From: Armatimonadota bacterium
Lineage (GTDB): Bacteria; Armatimonadota; SYMT01
NCBI GenBank assembly: GCA_046292385.1
Contig: JBKBRF010000001.1
Span: 269,608-333,607, forward strand
Direction of reading: 5' to 3'
DNA: 64,000 bases
Part shown: positions 5,244 to 31,513 of the stretch, piece by piece
Position numbering within the stretch: the stretch's first letter is position 1
How the letters are laid out: each line of letters opens with the position of its first letter
Translations under genes and position numbers: made by a program
Notes under the pieces: model-generated
What the model saw: the letters and a program-made list of their open reading frames with translations, nothing else
Database searches by the model: none
What the model was told of the DNA's origin: nothing

Positions 5244-6494
5244 ATGCCGTTCTGCAGCGTGGAAGAAGCGATCCGGGAGATCCGCGCGGGCAAGATGCTC
5301 GTGGTGGTCGACAGCGAGGACCGGGAGAACGAAGGCGACCTGGTGATGGCCGCCGAGTGCATCACTCCGGAAGCGATCAACTTCATGGAGACGCACGCCC
5401 GCGGCTGGGTCTGCGTGCCGCTGGAGGGACAGCGGCTCGACCAGCTCGATCTGCCGCTGATGGTCGCCCGCGGCACCGCCCGCCTCGGGACCGCGTTCAC
5501 GGTGACGGTCGACGCCCGTTACGGCACCACCACCGGCATCTCCGCCAAGGAGCAGGCCCACACGATCCAGGTGCTGCTCGATCCGGACACCCGGCCTTCC
5601 GACCTGCTGCGCCCCGGCCACGTGCGCCCGCTTCGGGCCGCACCGGGCGGCGTGCTGCTGCGCGCTGGGCACACCGAGGCGGCGGTCGACCTCGCCCGGA
5701 TGGCCGGCTTCCAGCCCGCGGGCGTTATCTGCGAGATCAAGCGGACCGACGGCGAGATGGCGCGCGTGCCCGAGCTGACGGAGTTCGCCGCCGAGCACGA
5801 CCTGAAGATCCTGACGATCGCCGATCTGATCGCCTACCGCCGCCAGACCGAGAAGCTGGTCAGCCGGGAGGCGAGCTGCCGGCTTCCGACGAAGTTCGGG
5901 GAGTTCGTGGCGCACGCCTACGAGACGACAGTCGACAGCAAGCCGTACCTCGCGCTGGTGCTCGGCGAGATCGATCCGGAGGAGCCGGTGCTGGTGCGCG
6001 CCCACAGCGGCTGCGTCACCGGCGATATCCTTCACTCGCTGAAGTGCGACTGCGGCAAGCAGCTCCACCGTGCGCTGGAGCGGATCCAGCGGGAAGGACG
6101 CGGCGTGCTGCTCTACCTGCAGGGGCACGAGGGGCGCGGGATCGGCCTGACCAACAAGATCCGGGCCTACGCGCTGCAGGACGCCGGGATGGACACCGTA
6201 GAGGCGAACCAGCACCTGGGGTTCCCCGCGGACATGCGGGACTACGGGATCGGCGCGCAGATCCTCTACGATCTCGGCGTGCGCAAGATGCGGCTGATGA
6301 CGAACAACCCGCGCAAACGCTCCGCTCTGCACGGCTACGGCCTCTCCGTAGTGGAGATCGTGCCGCTGAGCGGCGGGGTGACGGAGGAGAACCAGCGCTA
6401 CCTCCAGACCAAGCGGGACAAGCTGGGACACATGCTGCCGACCGACCTGCGCGTCGAGGCCGAAGATGAAGCGGCGGGCCGGCTCGACGCGTAG
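5244..6494 (+). CDS. ribBA: Bifunctional DHBP synthase / GTP cyclohydrolase II
   Basis: [28 protein letters not shown]...CDCG, EGRGIGL motifs. Confidence 0.97.
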
Positions 6495-6520
6495 CTTCAA
6501 AGGAATCTGGGAACAAGGCG

Positions 6521-6997
6521 ATGGCGAATGAAATCCAGGGTCGGCTCACCGCCGCCGGGGTCCGGGTCGGAATCGTGGTGGCTCGCTTCAACGAGCTGAT
6601 CACCAGCCAGCTGCTGAAGGGCGCGGAGGACGCGCTGCTCCGGCACGGCGGCGATCCGGACGCCGTGGACGTGGCGTGGGTGCCCGGCTCCTTTGAGATT
6701 CCGGTGGTAGCGCAGCAGATGGCCCGGTCCGGGAAGTACGACGCCATCGTATGCCTGGGCGCGCTGATCCGGGGGGCGACGAGTCACTATGACCACCTCG
6801 CCGCCTCCGTGACCGGCGCGCTCCTCGGCATCTCGGTGGAGAGCGGCCTTCCGGTGGTGAACGGGGTCCTGACGACGGAGACGATCGAGCAGGCGCTGGA
6901 GCGGGCGGGAACGAAAGCGGGGAACAAAGGCTACGATGCCGCGGTGACCGCTCTCGAGATGGCCTCCGTGCTCCGGCAGCTCGGCTCCGCCCGTTAG
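6521..6997 (+). CDS. ribH: 6,7-dimethyl-8-ribityllumazine synthase
   Basis: [25 protein letters not shown] motifs. Confidence 0.97.
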
Positions 6998-7040: not shown

Positions 7041-8135
7041 ATGGGACAGGCGGTGCGCAGTAATCTGATGGCCTTCGTGATCGGCTTCGTCACCTGCGCG
7101 GCGGCAGCGCGGCTGATGCTGCCGACCCCGGTGGCGGCGGTCTCGCCCGGCAGCTTTAGCACGGCGAACCCGGCCGACGTGGTGGCGGCAGTCGCCGCCT
7201 CCGTCGTGAACCTGGAGGTCTACGACCAGACCGGCGAGGGCGGCGAAAAGGAAGGCGTCTGGCCGCGCCTCCTCGGCATTCCGGCCGGCGTGCCGGGCGA
7301 CCCGAGCGCCGTCGCCTCCGGCGTGATCATCGACTCCAAAGGCTTCATCCTCACCAACGATCACGTCGTGGAAGAGGCCGCCCGCATCCGGGCGCGGCTC
7401 TCCGACGGCCGCTCCTTCGACGCCAAGGTCGTCGGCCGAGATCCGCACACCGACCTGGCCGTGGTGAAGATCGACGCGGGCAACCTCCAGCCGGCGCGCC
7501 TGGGCGACTCCCGGCACGTGCGGCCCGGCGACTCGGTGGTCGCCATCGGCAACCCGCTCGGCTTCGAGAGCAGCGTGAGCGTGGGCGTGGTCAGCGCCAA
7601 CCGCGAGGGGCCCTTCCGGATCGACGGCCGTACCCTGGGCGACATGATCCAGACCGACGCGGCGATCAACCAGGGCAACTCCGGCGGCGGTCTGTTCACG
7701 GCGGACGGCAAGCTGATCGGGATCAACACCGCGATCATGGTCGCCAAGGGCGGCAGCGGCAGCATCGGCATCGGCTTCGCCACGCCGACTCACCGCGCTC
7801 GCCCGGTGCTCGAGTCGCTGATCGCCGAGGGCAAGGTCAGCCGCCCCTGGCTCGGCATCCGCTACCGCAACCCGAGCTCCGGTTACCTGGTCCGCCGCGC
7901 GCGGCAGGGGGTCGGTCTGATGGTCGAGGAAGTGCTCCCCCGCAGCCCCGCCTCTCTCGCCGGCCTGATGCCGGCCGACATCCTCCGCCAGATCGGCGAG
8001 TGCCCCATCCGCAGTGCCGACGACATGTACACCTTCATGGCGCGCTACCAGCCGGGGCAGGAGGTGGAAGCCCGGGTGCTGCGCGGCGGCGTGGAAAAGA
8101 AGCTGCGGCTGAAGCTGGCGGCCCGGCCGGAGTAG
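7041..8135 (+). CDS. HtrA/DegP-family serine protease with one PDZ domain
   Basis: TNDHVV (His), DLAV (Asp), QTDAAINQGNSGG (Ser), C-terminal PDZ, N-terminal anchor. Confidence 0.92.
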   Translation: MGQAVRSNLMAFVIGFVTCAAAARLMLPTPVAAVSPGSFSTANPADVVAAVAASVVNLEVYDQTGEGGEKEGVWPRLLGIPAGVPGDPSAVASGVIIDSKGFILTNDHVVEEAARIRARLSDGRSFDAKVVGRDPHTDLAVVKIDAGNLQPARLGDSRHVRPGDSVVAIGNPLGFESSVSVGVVSANREGPFRIDGRTLGDMIQTDAAINQGNSGGGLFTADGKLIGINTAIMVAKGGSGSIGIGFATPTHRARPVLESLIAEGKVSRPWLGIRYRNPSSGYLVRRARQGVGLMVEEVLPRSPASLAGLMPADILRQIGECPIRSADDMYTFMARYQPGQEVEARVLRGGVEKKLRLKLAARPE

Positions 8136-8448: not shown

Positions 8449-9363
8449 TCAGGAGCCCGGAAGCGACTCCAGGCGCTCCTCGATCTGGCGGCGGAGCGAC
8501 TCCTCCGGCAGCAGGCCGCTTGCGTCGGCGACCGTGGGGTGCGGGAGCGGCTCCGGGGCGACGATCCGCACCTCTTCATTCTCCACGCTCACCGGATAGA
8601 GGCTGATCCCTTCCTGGGCGGGGCCGCTCACCTGCTGGCCGGTGACGACGTTGAACTGCGAGCCGTGCCAGGGACAGGTCACCACCCCGCAGGCGAGGGC
8701 GCCGTCGGAGAGCGGACCGCCTTTGTGTGGGCAGTGGTCCTGGAAGGCGACGATCCGGTTGTCGACGCGCGCGACCACGATCCGGTGGCCGTTCAGGTGG
8801 ACCAGCTTCATCTGGCCCGGCTTCTCGAACTCGCTCATCTCCGCCACGGAGATCCGCTCGCCGGCCGGTCCCTCCAGCTTGCCGCTTTCCCGGTGGCGGG
8901 TGGCGTTCGGGCCGCGGTGGTCTACCCCGATCTGGTTCCGGTAGACGAGTGTGCCGCCGAGCCAGCCCGAGTACATCAGCCCGGCCATGCCGACCAGCGA
9001 GAGCGGAGTGCCGAGCCAGCGGCCCCAGCGGTCCGGGGAGCGCTTCCGGAGCAGCAGGTTGAGCGCATACAGCCCGGTGATGCTGACGTTCATCAGCCCG
9101 TGCGTGGCGCCGCGCTTCTTGGCGGAGCTGTTCGGCGGAATGACGGCGAAGTAGTCGATCGCGCCCGGAACGGCCGCCGCCAGCGCGCCGATGATCCCCG
9201 CGAACATCATGTCGTCCGCGCTCCGGCGGAGCTGGTCGGCCCCATCCCCGTCCTTCGCCGCGGAAGCGAGATCGTAGGCAAAGCTGCCGGTCCAGAGACC
9301 GATCGGCAGCGCGATGAGCATCGGGTGGATCGGGTGGCTTCCGATCGAGGCTCGGCTCTTCAC
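8449..9363 (-). CDS. DUF2231-type membrane domain fused to a C-terminal Rieske [2Fe-2S] domain
   Basis: HPIHPMLIALPIG...HGLMN...GWLGGTLVY membrane domain; CPH...CPWHG Rieske ligands; GTG start after GAAGGAG. Confidence 0.85.
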   Translation of the reverse strand: MKSRASIGSHPIHPMLIALPIGLWTGSFAYDLASAAKDGDGADQLRRSADDMMFAGIIGALAAAVPGAIDYFAVIPPNSSAKKRGATHGLMNVSITGLYALNLLLRKRSPDRWGRWLGTPLSLVGMAGLMYSGWLGGTLVYRNQIGVDHRGPNATRHRESGKLEGPAGERISVAEMSEFEKPGQMKLVHLNGHRIVVARVDNRIVAFQDHCPHKGGPLSDGALACGVVTCPWHGSQFNVVTGQQVSGPAQEGISLYPVSVENEEVRIVAPEPLPHPTVADASGLLPEESLRRQIEERLESLPGS

Positions 9364-9556
9364 GGCGGGCACTCCTTCGCCTGGCCGGCACCCACCCGGG
9401 CGGTGGGCCGCAGTCACAGGCCAGGCTTATTTGCCCTCCCGCAAACAAGCTCCAAACAAGTCTGGAGAAGGAAGACGAAAGAAGAAAGAAGCCTCTCACG
9501 AAGTCTTGGCCGCGCCGGCGAGAGGTGGTGTCCGTCGTGCCCGGTTCTTTCCTCTC

Positions 9557-10504
9557 TCATCTCTCCTCTAAAGGTCTTGTCATCCGCCAACACCGGTGGA
9601 TCTTCTTGTTCCGGTAGTCTTCCGGAATGGTCAGCGCGGTGATCTCGTGCCGGTCGGCGGGGAGCAGCTCCTCCTCTTCCAGGTGGAAGCCGCGGTAGTT
9701 GGTGCTGAAGTAGAGCACGCCGCCCGGGTCGAGCAGCCGCAGGCACCCGTTGATGATCTCCACGTGGCGCTGCTGCACGTCGAAGACCTCCCGCATCTTC
9801 TTGGAGTTGCTGAAGGTCGGCGGGTCGCAGACGATCAGGTCGAAGCGCCGCCGCGCCCGCAGCGCCTCCGGCAGCCACTGCAAGATGTCCGCGCGCTCCA
9901 GGCGGTTGGTCTCCGTGCGGAGGCCGTTGAGCTCGAAGTTGCGGGCCGCCCAGGCGAGGTAGGTGTTCGAGATGTCGACGCTGGTGGTGCCGGCGGCGCC
10001 GCCCGCGGCGGCGTAGACGCTGAAGCTGGCGGTGTAGCAGAAGAGGTTCAGCATCCGCCGGCCTTCCGCTTCGTCCTGGACCATCTTGCGGGTGGTGCGG
10101 TGGTCCAGGAAGAGGCCGGTGTCGTGGTAATCGGAGAGGTTCACCCAGAACTGGTGCCCCTGCTCCCGGACTACGAACTCCTCTCGCTCCTCGGCGACCT
10201 TCTCATACTGGGAGAGACCGCGCTGGCGGGCGCGCTCCTTCAGGTAGAGGTGGTCGTCGTCGACCCCCAGGCCTTCTTTCACCTCGCGGACCACTTCGTC
10301 GAGCCACGCCTCGCGCTGCTCCGGCGTCTCATCCTTCTTCCGGTGCATCGCCCAGACCAGCGCGCGGCCGTCGTACCAGTCGACCACCAGCGGCTGGTCC
10401 GGAATGTCCTTCTCGTAAAGCCGGAAGCAGGTGACGTCGCTGCGCCGCGCCCACTTCCGCAGGTGCCGGTAGACGCGCTGGAGCCGGTTGGCGAGCATAC
10501 CCAT
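9557..10504 (-). CDS. Stand-alone RlmK-like rRNA methyltransferase (C-terminal half of RlmKL)
   Basis: LANRL...FRLYEKDIP, DYHDTGLFLDHR, LNLFCYTAS, DPPTFSNSK motifs; real start about 10504, not 11701. Confidence 0.85.
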   Translation of the reverse strand: MGMLANRLQRVYRHLRKWARRSDVTCFRLYEKDIPDQPLVVDWYDGRALVWAMHRKKDETPEQREAWLDEVVREVKEGLGVDDDHLYLKERARQRGLSQYEKVAEEREEFVVREQGHQFWVNLSDYHDTGLFLDHRTTRKMVQDEAEGRRMLNLFCYTASFSVYAAAGGAAGTTSVDISNTYLAWAARNFELNGLRTETNRLERADILQWLPEALRARRRFDLIVCDPPTFSNSKKMREVFDVQQRHVEIINGCLRLLDPGGVLYFSTNYRGFHLEEEELLPADRHEITALTIPEDYRNKKIHRCWRMTRPLEER

Positions 10505-10606
10505 GGCAGGTCTGATTCTGATCGTGTTTAAGCGGCCGGGCTCCCCAGGTAGGCAATGTCTGGAGCCTAGCTGAATGCGCGGGGGACGGGCCGCGGGAGA
10601 ATTCTG

Positions 10607-11515
10607 ATGGTCGCGATCGATCTGGTCCGGGGGCAGACTACCAGCAGCGAGACTCGCTTCGCAAGCCTGGAAGAGGCGGAGCCGCGGAGCGAGTACAACT
10701 ACTCGCATTTCGGCACTCGCCACCTGCTTCGGGACGCGCAGCGCACGTTCGCGGGGCGCGGCATCCCGCCCGGCGCGCTGGCTCCCGACTTCGAGCTGGA
10801 GAAGGTGGGAGGCGGCACGTTCCGCCTGAGTGATCTTCGCGGGATGCCGGTGCTGCTCCATTTCGGCTCCTTTACGTGACCGGCGACGGTTGGCACGGTC
10901 GTGCCGCTGCGCGATTTGCACGCTGTCTGGGGAGACCGGATCCAGTTCGTCGACGTGGTGATCCGCCAGGCGCATCCCGGCCCGGGAGTGCGGCCTTACC
11001 ACACCTTTGAAGAGAAGCGGAGGGACGCGGAGCGCTACGCCCGGGAGGAGCGAATCCCGTGGACCGTGGCTGTCGACGACCTGGACGGCACCGTCCACCA
11101 GGTCTACGGCGGGATTGCGGATCCGGCCTACCTGATCGGAGCCGACGGGCGCGTCTCGTTCTACAGCATGTGGACCAACGTCCCGGAGCTGGAGAAGGCG
11201 CTCGGCGAGCTGATGACCCAGGACTGGCAGGGGGTGGTCCGCGGCGGCCTGCTGCGCCGGCCGGACATGGTCCCGATCCTGACCGAAGGCTGGCCGGCGC
11301 TGGAGCGCGGGCTGCCGCAGAGCTACCTTGACCTGGAGCTGGCGGCGCCGGGGAGCGCCACGCTCTCCTGGCTCGGGTACCAGCTGCGGCCGGTGGTCCA
11401 GCCTGCCGCGCGCGCGGTCACCTCGCTGCCCGCGCCGGCCCGGGTGGGGCTGGCGATCGGAGCGATCGGCCTGGCGGTGTTTGGCCTCCGGGCCCTGGCA
11501 CGGCGGCGCGGGTAG
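10607..11515 (+). CDS. Iodothyronine deiodinase-like thioredoxin-fold selenoprotein (UGA at 10877-10879 read as Sec), C-terminal membrane anchor
   Basis: ORFs 10607-10879 and 10901-11515 are in the same frame; joined they read APDF...PVLLHFGSFT-U-P...IRQAHPG, matching deiodinase FGSCTUP / EAHP motifs; SECIS-like hairpin follows the UGA. Confidence 0.85.
10887..10909 (+). promoter_or_regulatory. Bacterial SECIS element
   Basis: CGG(U)UGGCAC-GGUC-GUGCCGCUG: 9-bp stem including G-U pairs, bulged U, GGUC loop starting 18 nt after the UGA. Confidence 0.8.
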
Positions 11516-11523
11516 GAGCCGAG

Positions 11524-12624
11524 ATGGAGCTGCGGCCGGTTTCCGACCAGGTAGTGGTGGTGATGGGTGCCTCCAGCGGGATTGGCCGCGACGTCGCCCA
11601 GCGCTTCGCCGCGCGCGGCGCGCGGGTGGTCCTCTCCGCGCGGGACGCCGACGCGCTGGCAGCGCTGGCGGCGGAGATCCGCGCGGGCGGCGGCGAGGCA
11701 ACCTGCTGTCCGGCCGACGTGGCCGTGTTCGAGCAGGTGCGGTCCGTGGCCGACTTCGCCGTCGCCAGGTATGGGCGTCTCGATACCTGGGTGCACCTTG
11801 CCGGAGTGGGGCTCTGGTCCCGCGTGGACGACATGCGGCCGGAGGAGTGGGACCGGGTGATCGCGGTCAACCTGAGCGGCCAGGCCTACGGCGCGATGGC
11901 GGCGCTGCCGCACCTGCGGGCGCAGGGGCGGGGGAAGCTGATCCACGTCTCCTCCCTGGAGGCAGCGACCGCGCTGCCGTTGCAGAGCGCATACGCGGCG
12001 TCGAAGCACGGGGTGCGGGGGTTCGTGCGCGCCCTGCGGATGGAGCTGCAGAGCGAGGGGAGCGGGATCGACGTGACGGAGGTGCTGCCGTCCGGGATTA
12101 ACACGCCGCTCTTCGATACCGCCCGCACCCACATCGGCGTGAAGCCGCGGCCGCTCCCGCCGATGTACGAGCCGGAGGTGGTGAGCGACGCGATCCTCTA
12201 CGCTGCCGAGCACCGGACCGAAGAGGTGGTGGCGGGCGGCGGGGGCAAGCTCGCGGAGCTGGCGCAGCGGTACGTGCCGCGCCTCTGGATGCGCGCCCTC
12301 GTCGCGCTGGCGCCGCGACTGCAGCGGACGGCGGAAGCGAAGGGGGAGGGCGCACCGGACAACCTGTTCCACCCGGCCGAGGGGCCCAGGCCGGCACACG
12401 GCACGTTCGGCGGTGAGTCGCGGCGCGTGAGCCTCTATACCTGGTCGCGCACTCACCCGCTCGCCGCCGGTGCCGTCCTGGCGCTCGGAATTGCCGCGTT
12501 TGCGGCCCTGGCCTCCCGGGGCCGCGGCACGACACCCGACCACGGCGCTTTTGGGCCCTGCTCCGTCCCGGCGGACGATCCGGCGGTAGAGGCCGAGCAG
12601 TCGTGCAGCCTCCGGGCGTCCTGA
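11524..12624 (+). CDS. Short-chain dehydrogenase/reductase with C-terminal hydrophobic tail
   Basis: GASSGIG NAD(P)-binding motif, YAASK catalytic motif; 8 nt after the selenoprotein gene. Confidence 0.92.
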   Translation: MELRPVSDQVVVVMGASSGIGRDVAQRFAARGARVVLSARDADALAALAAEIRAGGGEATCCPADVAVFEQVRSVADFAVARYGRLDTWVHLAGVGLWSRVDDMRPEEWDRVIAVNLSGQAYGAMAALPHLRAQGRGKLIHVSSLEAATALPLQSAYAASKHGVRGFVRALRMELQSEGSGIDVTEVLPSGINTPLFDTARTHIGVKPRPLPPMYEPEVVSDAILYAAEHRTEEVVAGGGGKLAELAQRYVPRLWMRALVALAPRLQRTAEAKGEGAPDNLFHPAEGPRPAHGTFGGESRRVSLYTWSRTHPLAAGAVLALGIAAFAALASRGRGTTPDHGAFGPCSVPADDPAVEAEQSCSLRAS

Positions 12625-12785: not shown

Positions 12786-15380
12786 ATGCCCCGCCATCCC
12801 CGCTTGCACCGTCTCGCCGCGCCTGCCGCGCTGTTCAGCGCCTTACTGGCCACCGGAGCCGGCGCCGCGAGCCTCCCCGACTTCGACATCCAGAGCGGCT
12901 CTCGCGGCACCACGCTGCCGCCGCCGCCCGGCGCGCTCTCTACTTCGGGTAAAGAGGTGCCGGCGGGCACGGTGATCAAGCTCGACGCGCTGACCGGCAC
13001 CGCCAGCCGCGTCTCCCATCCCCGCTCTACGCTGACCCGCCCCAGCTCCCTGCCGGCGGAGCAGGTGGCGCGCGGCTTCCTCCGCAGCGCCTCCGGGCTC
13101 TTCCGCCTGCGCGAGTCGGACCTGGCGGCCGTGACGCGGGTCCACCAGCACTCCACCGAGGGTCCGGGCGTCTCCCACGTCACCTTCGGCCAGCAGTTCC
13201 AGGGCATTCCGGTCTTCAAGGCGGAAAAGCTGGTCCACGTCGACCGGCGCGGCCGCGTGCTCTCCGCCTCCGGCGCGCTGGTGCCGGAGCTGCGCGCCAC
13301 GATCTCCGCGGTCGCGCCGCGCTTGAGCGCCGCGGAGGCGGTCCGGAGGGCGCTGCACCATGCCAGCATTCCGGCTGCGGCTCCCGGCCGGCAGGTGGCC
13401 GGTCCCATCGGAAAGCGGCGGGAGACTCGCTTCGTAAACGACCGGCTGCTCACCCGGCCGGCGGAGGTGGAGCTCTCCTACCTTCCGGTGGCGCCGGGCC
13501 GCACCGCGCTGGCGTGGGACACCACCCTCTGGCTCAAGAATTCGACGGCGGTCTACCACGTGCTGGTCGACGCGACCACCGGCGACCTGCTCTTCCGAAA
13601 GAACTACACGCAGCACGCCGCGAGCGGGTTGATCTACGACCACGAGGCGCCGCAGGACGGGGCGCCCTATCTGGGTACTACCCCGCCGGTGCTCCCACGG
13701 GTGACCGCGCCGTTCAACGGCAGCGATCACTTCCAGGCGTCAGACCCGCACTTCGACTGGTGGGCGGGAGAGTCGCAAACCAGCTCCCTGAGCAACAACG
13801 TCCGCGCGGTGGAGGACAGGGACAACGACGGGCGGCTGGGCGGTCTCTTCGACGTGCAGCAAAGCAACTTCGCCTTCGAGCTCGACCTGAGCAAAGACCC
13901 CGCCCAGTACCTCGCCGCCTCGGTCACCAACCTCTTCTACTGGAACAACTACCTGCACGACGTGTGGTACACGTTTGGCTTCAACGAGGCCGCGCGGAAT
14001 TTCCAGCATAAGAACTTCGGGCTCGGCGGCATTCCGTCAGACTCGATCCTCGCGGTGGCACAGCTCGGCGCGGATGTGAGTGACCCGAAGTTCCGCAACA
14101 ACGCCAGCATGTCGGTGCCGCCGGACGGCCAGGCCGGGCAGATGCTGATGTACGTGTGGGACGAGGCGGGGAGCCCGCTGCGAGACGGGTCGCTCTCCGC
14201 GGACATCATCGCCCACGAGTACTTCCACGGGGTGAGCCTGCGGCTGGTCGGCAACGCCAACGGGCTGAACGGCTTCCAGGGCGGCGCGATCGGCGAGGGG
14301 CTGTCCGACTTCGCCGCGCTGATGGTCCACGCGCGCCAGATCGACGATCCGCTGGGCACCTACCCGATCGGCGGCTACGTGCTGAACGACTTCCGGTTCG
14401 GCATCCGCAAGGAGCCGTACAGCGTCAACCCGAACGTCTTCACCCGCACCTACCGGCGGATCGGCGACCTGCGGAACGGGCAGTTGAGGGTCCACGACGG
14501 CGGAGAGATCCTCTGCAACGCGCTCTGGCAGACCTATGCGCGGCTCTACGAGCGGCTCGGCTTCACGCAGGCGAAGCGGCGGTCGATGCAGCTCCTGATC
14601 GACGCGCTGAAGCTCTCTCCCGCCGACCCGACCTTCCTCGACTTCCGCGACGCGCTGCTCCTGGCGGACCAGAACCGCTACGGCGGCGATTCCCGCACAG
14701 AGATCTGGCGCGCCTTCGCCTCCCGCGGCATGGGCTTCTCCGCCACTACGACCGGTCCGGACGACACCGCCCCGCAGGAAGCGTTCAACACGCCGGACCC
14801 GATTCCCGGAGACACGAACGGGGACGGCTTCGTGAACGTGGTCGACCTGCAGACGCTGGTGAACGTGGTACGCGGCGTCACGCCGAAGAACGTGGAGATC
14901 CAGGACGTCAACGGCGACTCGGACGTCACCGACGCGGATTACGACGCGTTCCTGGAGCTCTACCTGGCGATGGAGGACGACTTCCTCTTCGGCGGCGACG
15001 CCGAGATCCTGGCGAAGAAGAAAAAGAAGGTGCCGTTCTTCGGCTTCCATCCCGGCAAGCTGCAGATCTCGGCGCTCGCCTTCGACCTGATCCCGGGGAA
15101 GAACGACATCGTGGTGGAGCTGAAGCTCGCCCGGAACGACCTCCGCCTCGCCGCCAAGACGCTCGGCAACCGCCGCGGTCGCGTGGTGCTCTTCAGCACC
15201 ACCGGCCAGCCGATCCCGAAGGCCGCGAAGCTGCTCCTCTTCAAGGCGAAGGGCCTGAAGTCGGTAATCCCGCTCGATCCCAGCACCGACAACCGGGGCT
15301 CCGAAGGCGCCTCGCCGGCTGCCACCCTGCACGAGATCCCGTACGTAAAGGGCGGAAAGCGCGGCCCCGGCCTGGGGTAA
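12786..15380 (+). CDS. Secreted M36 (fungalysin) metallopeptidase with FTP/PepSY propeptide and dockerin-like domain
   Basis: Signal peptide; TNLFYWNNYLHD, GFNEAARNFQ, HEYFHG zinc motif, GEGLSD; GDTNGDGFVNVVDL dockerin-type repeat. Confidence 0.88.
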   Translation: MPRHPRLHRLAAPAALFSALLATGAGAASLPDFDIQSGSRGTTLPPPPGALSTSGKEVPAGTVIKLDALTGTASRVSHPRSTLTRPSSLPAEQVARGFLRSASGLFRLRESDLAAVTRVHQHSTEGPGVSHVTFGQQFQGIPVFKAEKLVHVDRRGRVLSASGALVPELRATISAVAPRLSAAEAVRRALHHASIPAAAPGRQVAGPIGKRRETRFVNDRLLTRPAEVELSYLPVAPGRTALAWDTTLWLKNSTAVYHVLVDATTGDLLFRKNYTQHAASGLIYDHEAPQDGAPYLGTTPPVLPRVTAPFNGSDHFQASDPHFDWWAGESQTSSLSNNVRAVEDRDNDGRLGGLFDVQQSNFAFELDLSKDPAQYLAASVTNLFYWNNYLHDVWYTFGFNEAARNFQHKNFGLGGIPSDSILAVAQLGADVSDPKFRNNASMSVPPDGQAGQMLMYVWDEAGSPLRDGSLSADIIAHEYFHGVSLRLVGNANGLNGFQGGAIGEGLSDFAALMVHARQIDDPLGTYPIGGYVLNDFRFGIRKEPYSVNPNVFTRTYRRIGDLRNGQLRVHDGGEILCNALWQTYARLYERLGFTQAKRRSMQLLIDALKLSPADPTFLDFRDALLLADQNRYGGDSRTEIWRAFASRGMGFSATTTGPDDTAPQEAFNTPDPIPGDTNGDGFVNVVDLQTLVNVVRGVTPKNVEIQDVNGDSDVTDADYDAFLELYLAMEDDFLFGGDAEILAKKKKKVPFFGFHPGKLQISALAFDLIPGKNDIVVELKLARNDLRLAAKTLGNRRGRVVLFSTTGQPIPKAAKLLLFKAKGLKSVIPLDPSTDNRGSEGASPAATLHEIPYVKGGKRGPGLG

Positions 15381-31405: not shown

Positions 31406-31415
31406 TCAGGCACGT

Positions 31416-31488
31416 TGCCGGATAGCTCAGTTGGCAGAGCGACTGACTCTGGATCAGTAGGTCCTAGGTTCGAGCCCTAGTCCGGCAG
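31416..31488 (+). tRNA. tRNA-Gln (anticodon CUG), CCA not encoded
   Basis: TGCCGGA/TCCGGCA acceptor stem (U1-A72), D arm GCTCAGTTGGCAGAGC, anticodon arm ACTGA-CTCTGGA-TCAGT, GGTTCGAG T loop. Confidence 0.96.
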
Positions 31489-31513
31489 TCCAAACGAAGA
31501 TCGGCCCGCATCC

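Follow-up and report, generated by a model that had tools for sequence, protein, structure and literature searches.

The vertebrate iodothyronine deiodinases Dio1-3 belong to the membrane-anchored selenoenzymes and carry an N-terminal anchor and a selenocysteine insertion sequence (SECIS) in the 3' untranslated region. Their proton relay consists of Ser, Thr, Glu, His, Tyr and a second His, with a Trp of loop-D stacking on the His (PMC11592359). A 2005 study of the Sargasso Sea predicted bacterial deiodinase-like selenoproteins that occur in selenocysteine (Sec) and Cys forms and are furnished with a bacterial SECIS, and its authors presumed a redox role (Zhang, Fomenko & Gladyshev, PMC1088965). 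A 2026 review lists a "Deiodinase-like protein, PF00837" with the motif UxxC (PMC13188914), as does a 2022 review. Here we describe a gene related to these systems at positions 10607-11515 (+) of a 64,000-nucleotide stretch of DNA, in the following called the window, from an Armatimonadota bacterium (lineage SYMT01; GenBank assembly GCA_046292385.1, contig JBKBRF010000001.1, positions 269,608 to 333,607 of the forward strand). With a probability of roughly 0.9, this is a single gene for a selenocysteine oxidoreductase with a thioredoxin/peroxiredoxin/deiodinase fold that conforms to the full account given below.

The gene forms one frame of 302 codons, which begins with an ATG at 10607 behind an apparently Shine-Dalgarno-like GGGAGA (10590-10595 (+)) and closes at a TAG (11513-11515). 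Codon 91 is its single internal stop, a TGA at 10877-10879 (+) that is flanked as in LLHFGSFT-U-PATVGTVVPL. Under translation table 11 the gene is split into two open reading frames (ORFs) at 10607-10879 (90 aa) and 10901-11515 (204 aa, GTG start). An earlier note on this DNA, made from the letters alone, had continued the first ORF in the same frame to 11515 as a protein of 302 aa with the UGA at codon 91, and the translation agrees. The two ORFs delivered by standard calling are what could be expected of a nonsense mutation or an assembly error, that is, of a pseudogene or of two small genes, and a hairpin that is not significant when folded as a single sequence (see below) would suit this explanation as well. 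It is nevertheless highly improbable in view of the recurrence of the TGA in homologues and in contigs of other studies, the covarying hairpin beside it and the complete Sec machinery of the genome, and also because a stop at this codon would cut the AlphaFold model within the active site.

A protein search returned 209 matches, the best 120 of which were examined for length. Only 20 were full length (285-508 aa). The other 100, including the window's own downstream ORF, were pieces of approximately 185-230 aa that cover only the portion past codon 91, because gene callers stop at the UGA. When the 20 full-length homologues are aligned (A1), 18 of them have Cys at the position of U91, one has Ser and in one the residue is deleted. 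A genome scan with one genome per species yielded 138 relatives, and the active-site motif could be located in 77 of the best 80 loci that were kept (not in the remaining three; one further TGA locus duplicates another and was counted once). The codon at this site is TGA in 69 of the 77 loci, TGC or TGT in six, TCG in one and CGA in one, and the TGA forms span at least seven phyla. The best 80 relatives belong to the Acidobacteriota (many of them Pyrinomonadaceae), Chloroflexota and Thermomicrobiales, Armatimonadota, Gemmatimonadota, several deltaproteobacterial lineages and Actinomycetota, the latter represented by Rubrobacter, Thermoleophilia and Pseudonocardia nigra DSM 104088, and several of these genomes carry two to four copies. 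An exhaustive HMMER search reached 169 representative clusters at E<=1e-30, and 1754 at the looser threshold of E<=1e-10. Many begin at profile positions 88-114, which points again to truncated gene calls. Two loci deviate individually: at L090, CGA (Arg) stands in place of the Sec codon although the hairpin is intact, and a recent mutation, a pseudogene or an error in sequencing appears to be the reason, and L066 contains a second in-frame TGA 16 codons past the first (HAR-U-GDR), where the others have Trp.

The host genome (G000; 7.04 Mb, 98% complete) encodes tRNA-Sec, selA, selB and selD, all scoring over the curated cut-offs. The tRNA-Sec reaches 66.6 bits and is called SeC(tca) by ARAGORN, and SelA, SelB and SelD reach 578, 367 and 362 bits, respectively. 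All four genes that the earlier note had named as a check on its proposal (selA, selB, selC and selD) are thus present. The genes for tRNA-Sec, selD and selA lie side by side on one contig (C11:87438-90122; loci L001, L009 and L018). The selD of this genome has an in-frame TGA of its own (KCGG-U-ASK). A hairpin with a GU loop, UGGCGCAG-GUG-CUGCGCCA, comes after it, and its loop begins 33 nt past the UGA and hence farther downstream than in the gene studied here. Among five checked genomes of TGA carriers, selB exceeded the cut-off in four, including that of P. nigra. As the earlier note had also raised the possibility of an assembly error, contigs from the runs of three other studies are of interest: X2 record 9 (10754-10928), X3 record 15 (10810-11107) and X4 record 22 (10848-11051) all cover the TGA with 0 differences. 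X1 may itself be the source of the window's DNA and was left out of this count. It is unlikely that TGA serves as a sense codon genome-wide under a variant genetic code, because homologues use Cys as the alternative, the genome encodes dedicated Sec machinery and a hairpin goes with the TGA. Taken from these comparisons, the reading of UGA91 as selenocysteine is strongly supported.

Past the TGA the sequence reads UGA CCGGCGA CGGUUGGCAC GGUC GUGCCGCUG. Local folding of 39 nt and 29 nt gives GGCAC-GGUC-GUGCC, extended by UGG/CUG with one bulged U, so that the hairpin CGG-U-UGGCAC / GGUC / GUGCC-G-CUG occupies 10887-10909 (+), with the loop at 10897-10900 and the conserved core at 10891-10906. 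The GGUC loop starts at the 18th base past the TGA, leaving 17 nt between the UGA and the loop. In every TGA form of the family a hairpin with a stem of 5-6 bp and a GGUC or AGUU loop is found 11 nt past the TGA. Covariation was tested on 68 distinct 45-nt segments starting at the TGA, with helix columns 15-21 paired to columns 24-30. Standard pairs fill 98.7% of the 476 cells, and two-sided changes occur in six of the seven stem pairs (40 cells). None of 500 shuffles matched the real alignment on any of five measures, and sliding the partner by 1-3 columns as a control lowered the pairing to 21-49%. The core is GGCUC/GAGCC at 49 loci and GGCAC/GUGCC in the window only, and the other cores present are GGCGC/GCGCC, GGCGG/CCGCC, AGCGG/CCGCU, GGCGG/CUGCC and GGUUC/GAACC. 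Every TGA form has the complete core and the CGA form retains it, whereas all six Cys forms and the Ser form have an incomplete one. The ends of the loop covary too (G..C in 59 and A..U in nine of the 68 segments), around an invariant GU. The family thus conserves a short stem with a (G/A)GU(C/U) loop. As the stem lies within codons 5-9 past the Sec, RNA pairing forces paired changes in the protein, and the stem variants UC/GA, AC/GU, GC/GC and GG/CC correspond to the amino acid pairs S/E, T/V, A/A and G/P.

The SECIS of Escherichia coli fdhF, with its bulged U, its GGUC-containing loop and its short distance to the UGA, offers the closest comparison for this element. Both hairpins follow directly on the UGA, carry a GGUC apical loop at nearly equal distance from it and, in the window copy, have a bulged U. 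Unlike in fdhF, however, the family's stem is shorter, the loop is AGUU in nine of the 68 segments and the first and last bases of the loop covary (G..C or A..U), exposing only the GU. Furthermore, column 15 forms a C-G pair in 55 of the 68 segments and the bulged U of the window is therefore not conserved in the family. Of the fdhF-like SECIS proposed in the earlier note, the stem, the GGUC loop and the 18-nt position hold, while the bulged U does not stand as a conserved feature. A scan of positions 10000-12000 against Rfam at E up to 10 gave three chance-level matches and no SECIS family, a result without weight, as it was left unchecked whether a bacterial SECIS model exists in Rfam.

The AlphaFold model, which is based on an alignment, has a predicted local distance difference test (pLDDT) score of 92.2 and a predicted template modelling score (pTM) of 0.87, and its fold runs through the position of the TGA. 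It predicts a thioredoxin/peroxiredoxin-type fold with high confidence. The catalytic domain comprises approximately residues 45-207 (10739-11227 (+)), which is also the range covered by the structural matches. Of the profiles considered, the protein passes Pfam AhpC-TSA (PF00578; 28 bits, cut-off 26), which all 21 aligned members match. It fails Pfam T4_deiodinase (PF00837; 19.6 bits, cut-off 27), matched by 18 of the 21 members at E<=0.01, and also NCBIfam NF038285, deiodinase_rel (59 bits, cut-off 250), where only profile positions 179-324 of 347 are covered. NF038285 is the top NCBIfam match for all 21 members, each of them far below the cut-off. Failing both of these cut-offs, the protein is to be regarded as a deiodinase relative and not as a filed member of either family.

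In structural comparisons by VIA-align, mouse Dio2 (9h48) ranked first (Z 17.5, root-mean-square deviation 1.8, 157 residues aligned) and Dio3 (4tr3) second (Z 15.9), and mouse Dio3 is also the best PDB sequence match (E 3e-4), with U91 on the Sec site. In this alignment FGSFT-U-P falls on FGSCT-(Sec)-P of Dio3, which reads FGSCT(C)P in the aligned sequence, and IRQAHP falls on IEEAHP. S88, T90, U91, H123 and P124 thereby coincide with Ser, Thr, Sec, His and Pro residues in the active site and the proton relay of the deiodinases. The motif RQAHPG (residues 120-125, 10964-10981 (+)) is the counterpart of EEAHPS in the Dio3 sequence IEEAHPS. In A1, R120 and Q121 are invariant and A122, H123, P124 and G125 nearly so. 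The earlier note had inferred a deiodinase-like SxxU enzyme of thioredoxin fold with a QAHP motif, and each of these elements was recovered: S88-x-x-U91 in a thioredoxin/peroxiredoxin-type model, RQAHPG, and Dio2 or Dio3 at the top of both the structural and the PDB sequence matches. There are, on the other hand, clear differences to Dio1-3. An 8-residue gap replaces the part of loop-D with DGW, and the window has RQAHPGPG at this point, hence a shorter loop without the Trp. The relay Glu is a Gln, the position of the Tyr is occupied by Val, and the distal Cys of the deiodinases is missing. The predicted membrane anchor is C-terminal, and the SECIS is of the bacterial in-frame type.

The Foldseek E-values, by contrast, favour ResA. 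ResA/TlpA-like chains provide the best E-values in that search and also the best PDB profile matches, and the protein could on this account be a thiol-disulfide oxidoreductase that reduces protein disulfides. ResA and TlpA work outside the cytoplasm, and the window protein has no signal peptide and no hydrophobic stretch at its N-terminus. It has neither a CxxC nor a UxxC dithiol motif, since the Sec is followed by P-A-T and the whole protein lacks cysteine; likewise, 50 of the 70 Sec forms are without any Cys in the region examined. A function of the ResA/TlpA type is therefore very unlikely. The single-Sec oxidoreductase favoured here has a parallel in the 1-Cys peroxiredoxins, such as AhpE of Mycobacterium tuberculosis, and in the Sec-peroxiredoxin, in which an (S/T)-x-x-(C/U) nucleophile likewise opens a helix. 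In the window protein, Sec91 sits at the N-terminus of helix 92-108. AhpE was aligned with Z 14.4-14.6, the AhpC/TSA cut-off is passed, and in both cases there is a single redox residue and, consequently, a need for an external reductant. Peroxiredoxins are defined by the motif PxxxT/SxxC together with a conserved catalytic Arg. The Pro of the window protein, P81, is at -10 and not at -7, and the protein has an additional C-terminal domain and tail.

Downstream of the catalytic domain, a conserved and family-specific helical region extends over approximately residues 208-275 (11228-11431 (+)). The model has helices at residues 221-268, with pLDDT 93-95 for residues 211-260 and 79 for residues 261-270, and P219, H220, G228, R234, G235, D242, P248, G249 and P262 are conserved in A1. 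The most hydrophobic 19-mer of the protein follows at residues 280-298 (Kyte-Doolittle mean 2.02), within a modelled helix at residues 276-301 and ahead of RRRG (11444-11512 (+) for helix and RRRG together). The earlier note had inferred a C-terminal membrane anchor, and a C-terminal hydrophobic maximum recurs in 15 of the 21 family members. From hydropathy and model, the Arg-flanked tail is probably a tail anchor. Two family members from Chloroflexota metagenome-assembled genomes (L067 and L080) are fused to a C-terminal DUF1990 domain, so that approximately 425 residues follow the active site. Of these two, L067 has Ser (TCG) at the site and L080 has Sec.

These features set the protein apart from the described deiodinase-like selenoproteins. 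It shares with the Sargasso Sea sequences the bacterial origin, the coexistence of Sec and Cys forms, an in-coding SECIS with a G in a small apical loop, a thioredoxin-type fold with Sec at the deiodinase position and a presumed redox function (PMC1088965). The earlier note's statement that such bacterial proteins had been predicted before is correct. In contrast to the listed family with UxxC and PF00837, the window protein has U-P-A-T, no Cys and scores below the PF00837 and NF038285 cut-offs. A second deiodinase family with an in-frame TGA, of the form FGSxTUPPFR ... YIREAHPxDGW ... WPDRxY, is encoded at loci L022-L026 of relatives G009, G003, G016, G001 and G002. These proteins have hydrophobic N-termini that resemble signal peptides by eye, each gene has its own hairpin past the TGA with a GGUC, AGGU or GGCC loop, and the frame of L024 continues into a WCPPC thioredoxin domain. 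Compared to such secreted relatives, the window family lacks a signal peptide, has RQAHPG and carries approximately 95 additional C-terminal residues with a hydrophobic tail. Since it fails the family cut-offs, has neither Cys nor DGW and carries an additional C-terminal helical region with a tail, the window protein represents a separate branch, mostly Sec-using, within the bacterial deiodinase-like selenoproteins predicted earlier. No paper describing this subfamily was found in a search that left aside the supplementary tables of selenoproteome surveys, which may list members as "deiodinase-like" or "Prx-like".

The distribution of cysteines gives some indication of the chemistry. A second Cys at +95 (AFCGTWGQ) occurs in four of the six Cys forms and in none of the 70 Sec forms. 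Its carriers are the actinobacterial loci L102, L107, L116 and L118 and ten A1 proteins, and Sec forms have Tyr at this position. This Cys is a candidate resolving cysteine that might have been gained alongside the change from Sec to Cys. The pattern would fit a nucleophile that is oxidized and then resolved, and appears to argue against a disulfide exchanger of the CxxC type.

We propose the following mechanism. Sec-tRNA(Sec), delivered by SelB, would decode UGA91, with SelB presumably binding to and being recruited by the in-coding hairpin (11 nt past the UGA, 5-6 bp G+C-rich stem, GGUC cap). The selenolate of Sec91, the only redox residue of the protein, would most likely attack the oxygen of a hydroperoxide or another electrophile, and the selenenic or selenenyl intermediate might then be reduced by an external thiol system, as required by the lack of any cysteine available for resolving it. 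The C-terminal helices together with the Arg-flanked tail probably attach the enzyme to the membrane on its cytoplasmic side. This location would suggest lipid-soluble substrates, for instance lipid hydroperoxides. The protein would accordingly be a cytoplasmic, tail-anchored 1-Sec peroxidase or reductase, as far as can be judged from sequence and model.

Alternatively, the protein could be a true reductive dehalogenase, whose selenolate dehalogenates phenolic or aromatic compounds at the membrane, as in the animal deiodinases. The rank of Dio2 and Dio3 among the structural and PDB sequence matches, the motifs FGSxTUP and AHP held in common with the deiodinases, the combination of Sec with a (predicted) membrane anchor and the first rank of deiodinase_rel for 21 of 21 members are all consistent with this function. 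It is difficult to reconcile, though, with the absence of the loop-D Trp (DGW) and of the distal Cys, with the replacement of Glu200 by Gln and of the relay Tyr by Val, and with scores below the PF00837 and NF038285 cut-offs. Neither the window nor the context of the 81 loci compared yielded neighbouring genes related to dehalogenation, and the authors of the original prediction for bacteria had a general redox role in mind (PMC1088965). Dehalogenation is possible but unsupported and hence a speculation, and we consider this alternative improbable.

Several observations also weigh against the single-Sec peroxidase or reductase preferred here. Folded as a single sequence, the hairpin is no stabler than its shuffles (z -0.84 and -1.10), of which 35 of 200 and 29 of 200 fold as well, and when 64 nt of context are included, another structure becomes the minimum-energy fold. 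Spurious ORFs and stems are abundant in this genome, whose G+C content is very high. The support for the hairpin thus comes from the comparison of homologues and not from single-sequence folding. The structural margin is small, as the deiodinases, with Z 17.5 and 15.9, are followed by a plateau of ResA, TlpA and peroxiredoxin structures at 15.7-14. The tail has approximately 15 uncharged residues between R279 and R295, which is short for a membrane span. The assignment as a peroxidase derives from the fold and from the absence of a CxxC motif. Lastly, the gene context is not conserved: in a clustering of ORFs at the 81 loci, no neighbour recurred apart from a gene of the short-chain dehydrogenase/reductase (SDR) family, which was present at 11.

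In the window, this SDR-family oxidoreductase gene (11524-12624 (+); Pfam adh_short 1.2e-47; NF005495 363 bits) starts 8 nt past the stop of the selenoprotein gene, and its AGGAG overlaps the selenoprotein stop codon, so that the two genes are probably co-transcribed. By tblastn, an adjacent homologue was found at nine of the 81 loci. A divergent gene for an RNA methyltransferase-like protein (RlmK/L-like) lies upstream. The RNA methyltransferase-like, M36 peptidase and HtrA ORFs are adjacent at none of the 81 loci, and the Rieske/DUF2231 ORF has matches at only two. The window also contains riboflavin genes (5244-6997 (+)) for DHBP synthase fused to GTP cyclohydrolase II (ribBA) and for lumazine synthase (ribH), an HtrA-like trypsin/PDZ protease (7041-8135 (+)) and a membrane protein in which DUF2231 and a Rieske 2Fe-2S domain are fused (8449-9417 (-)). 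A metallopeptidase of the M36 fungalysin type, which includes an FTP propeptide and a dockerin domain, is encoded downstream (12786-15380 (+)). The sole tRNA of the window is a tRNA-Gln (ctg) at 31415-31492 (+).

The distribution of Sec and Cys within the family was followed on a quick maximum-likelihood tree of 77 rows, in which the Sec site was masked as X and the short row L066 dropped. Forms without Sec are nested among the Sec forms, and five changes of state are needed, four of them forced by well-supported branches. Sec may be the ancestral state, as far as an unrooted tree can indicate.

Because gene callers cut the gene at the UGA, standard annotation shows neither the family nor its active site, nor that the phyla which carry it use selenium. 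Accordingly, the named proteins among the 100 C-terminal pieces in the best 120 matches are called "hypothetical protein". In aerobic lineages of the soil the family has kept Sec in preference to Cys very strongly, and it shows with unusual clarity how an RNA hairpin dictates paired amino acid changes in the protein that it encodes. It also supplies a Cys-free 1-Sec relative of the deiodinases with testable chemistry, for which a cultured carrier with two TGA copies, L109 and L117, and selB is at hand in P. nigra DSM 104088. A more far-reaching interpretation, to which we assign a low likelihood, is that the gene is the founding example of an unrecognized selenoenzyme family, widespread, approximately 90% Sec-using, mostly Cys-free, tail-anchored and common in bacteria of soils and desert crusts, which would perform deiodinase-type chemistry, be it selenolate-driven dehalogenation or the reduction of a membrane-soluble electrophile. 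If this were true, the family would offer a bacterial model of how deiodinase chemistry arises from a peroxiredoxin scaffold.

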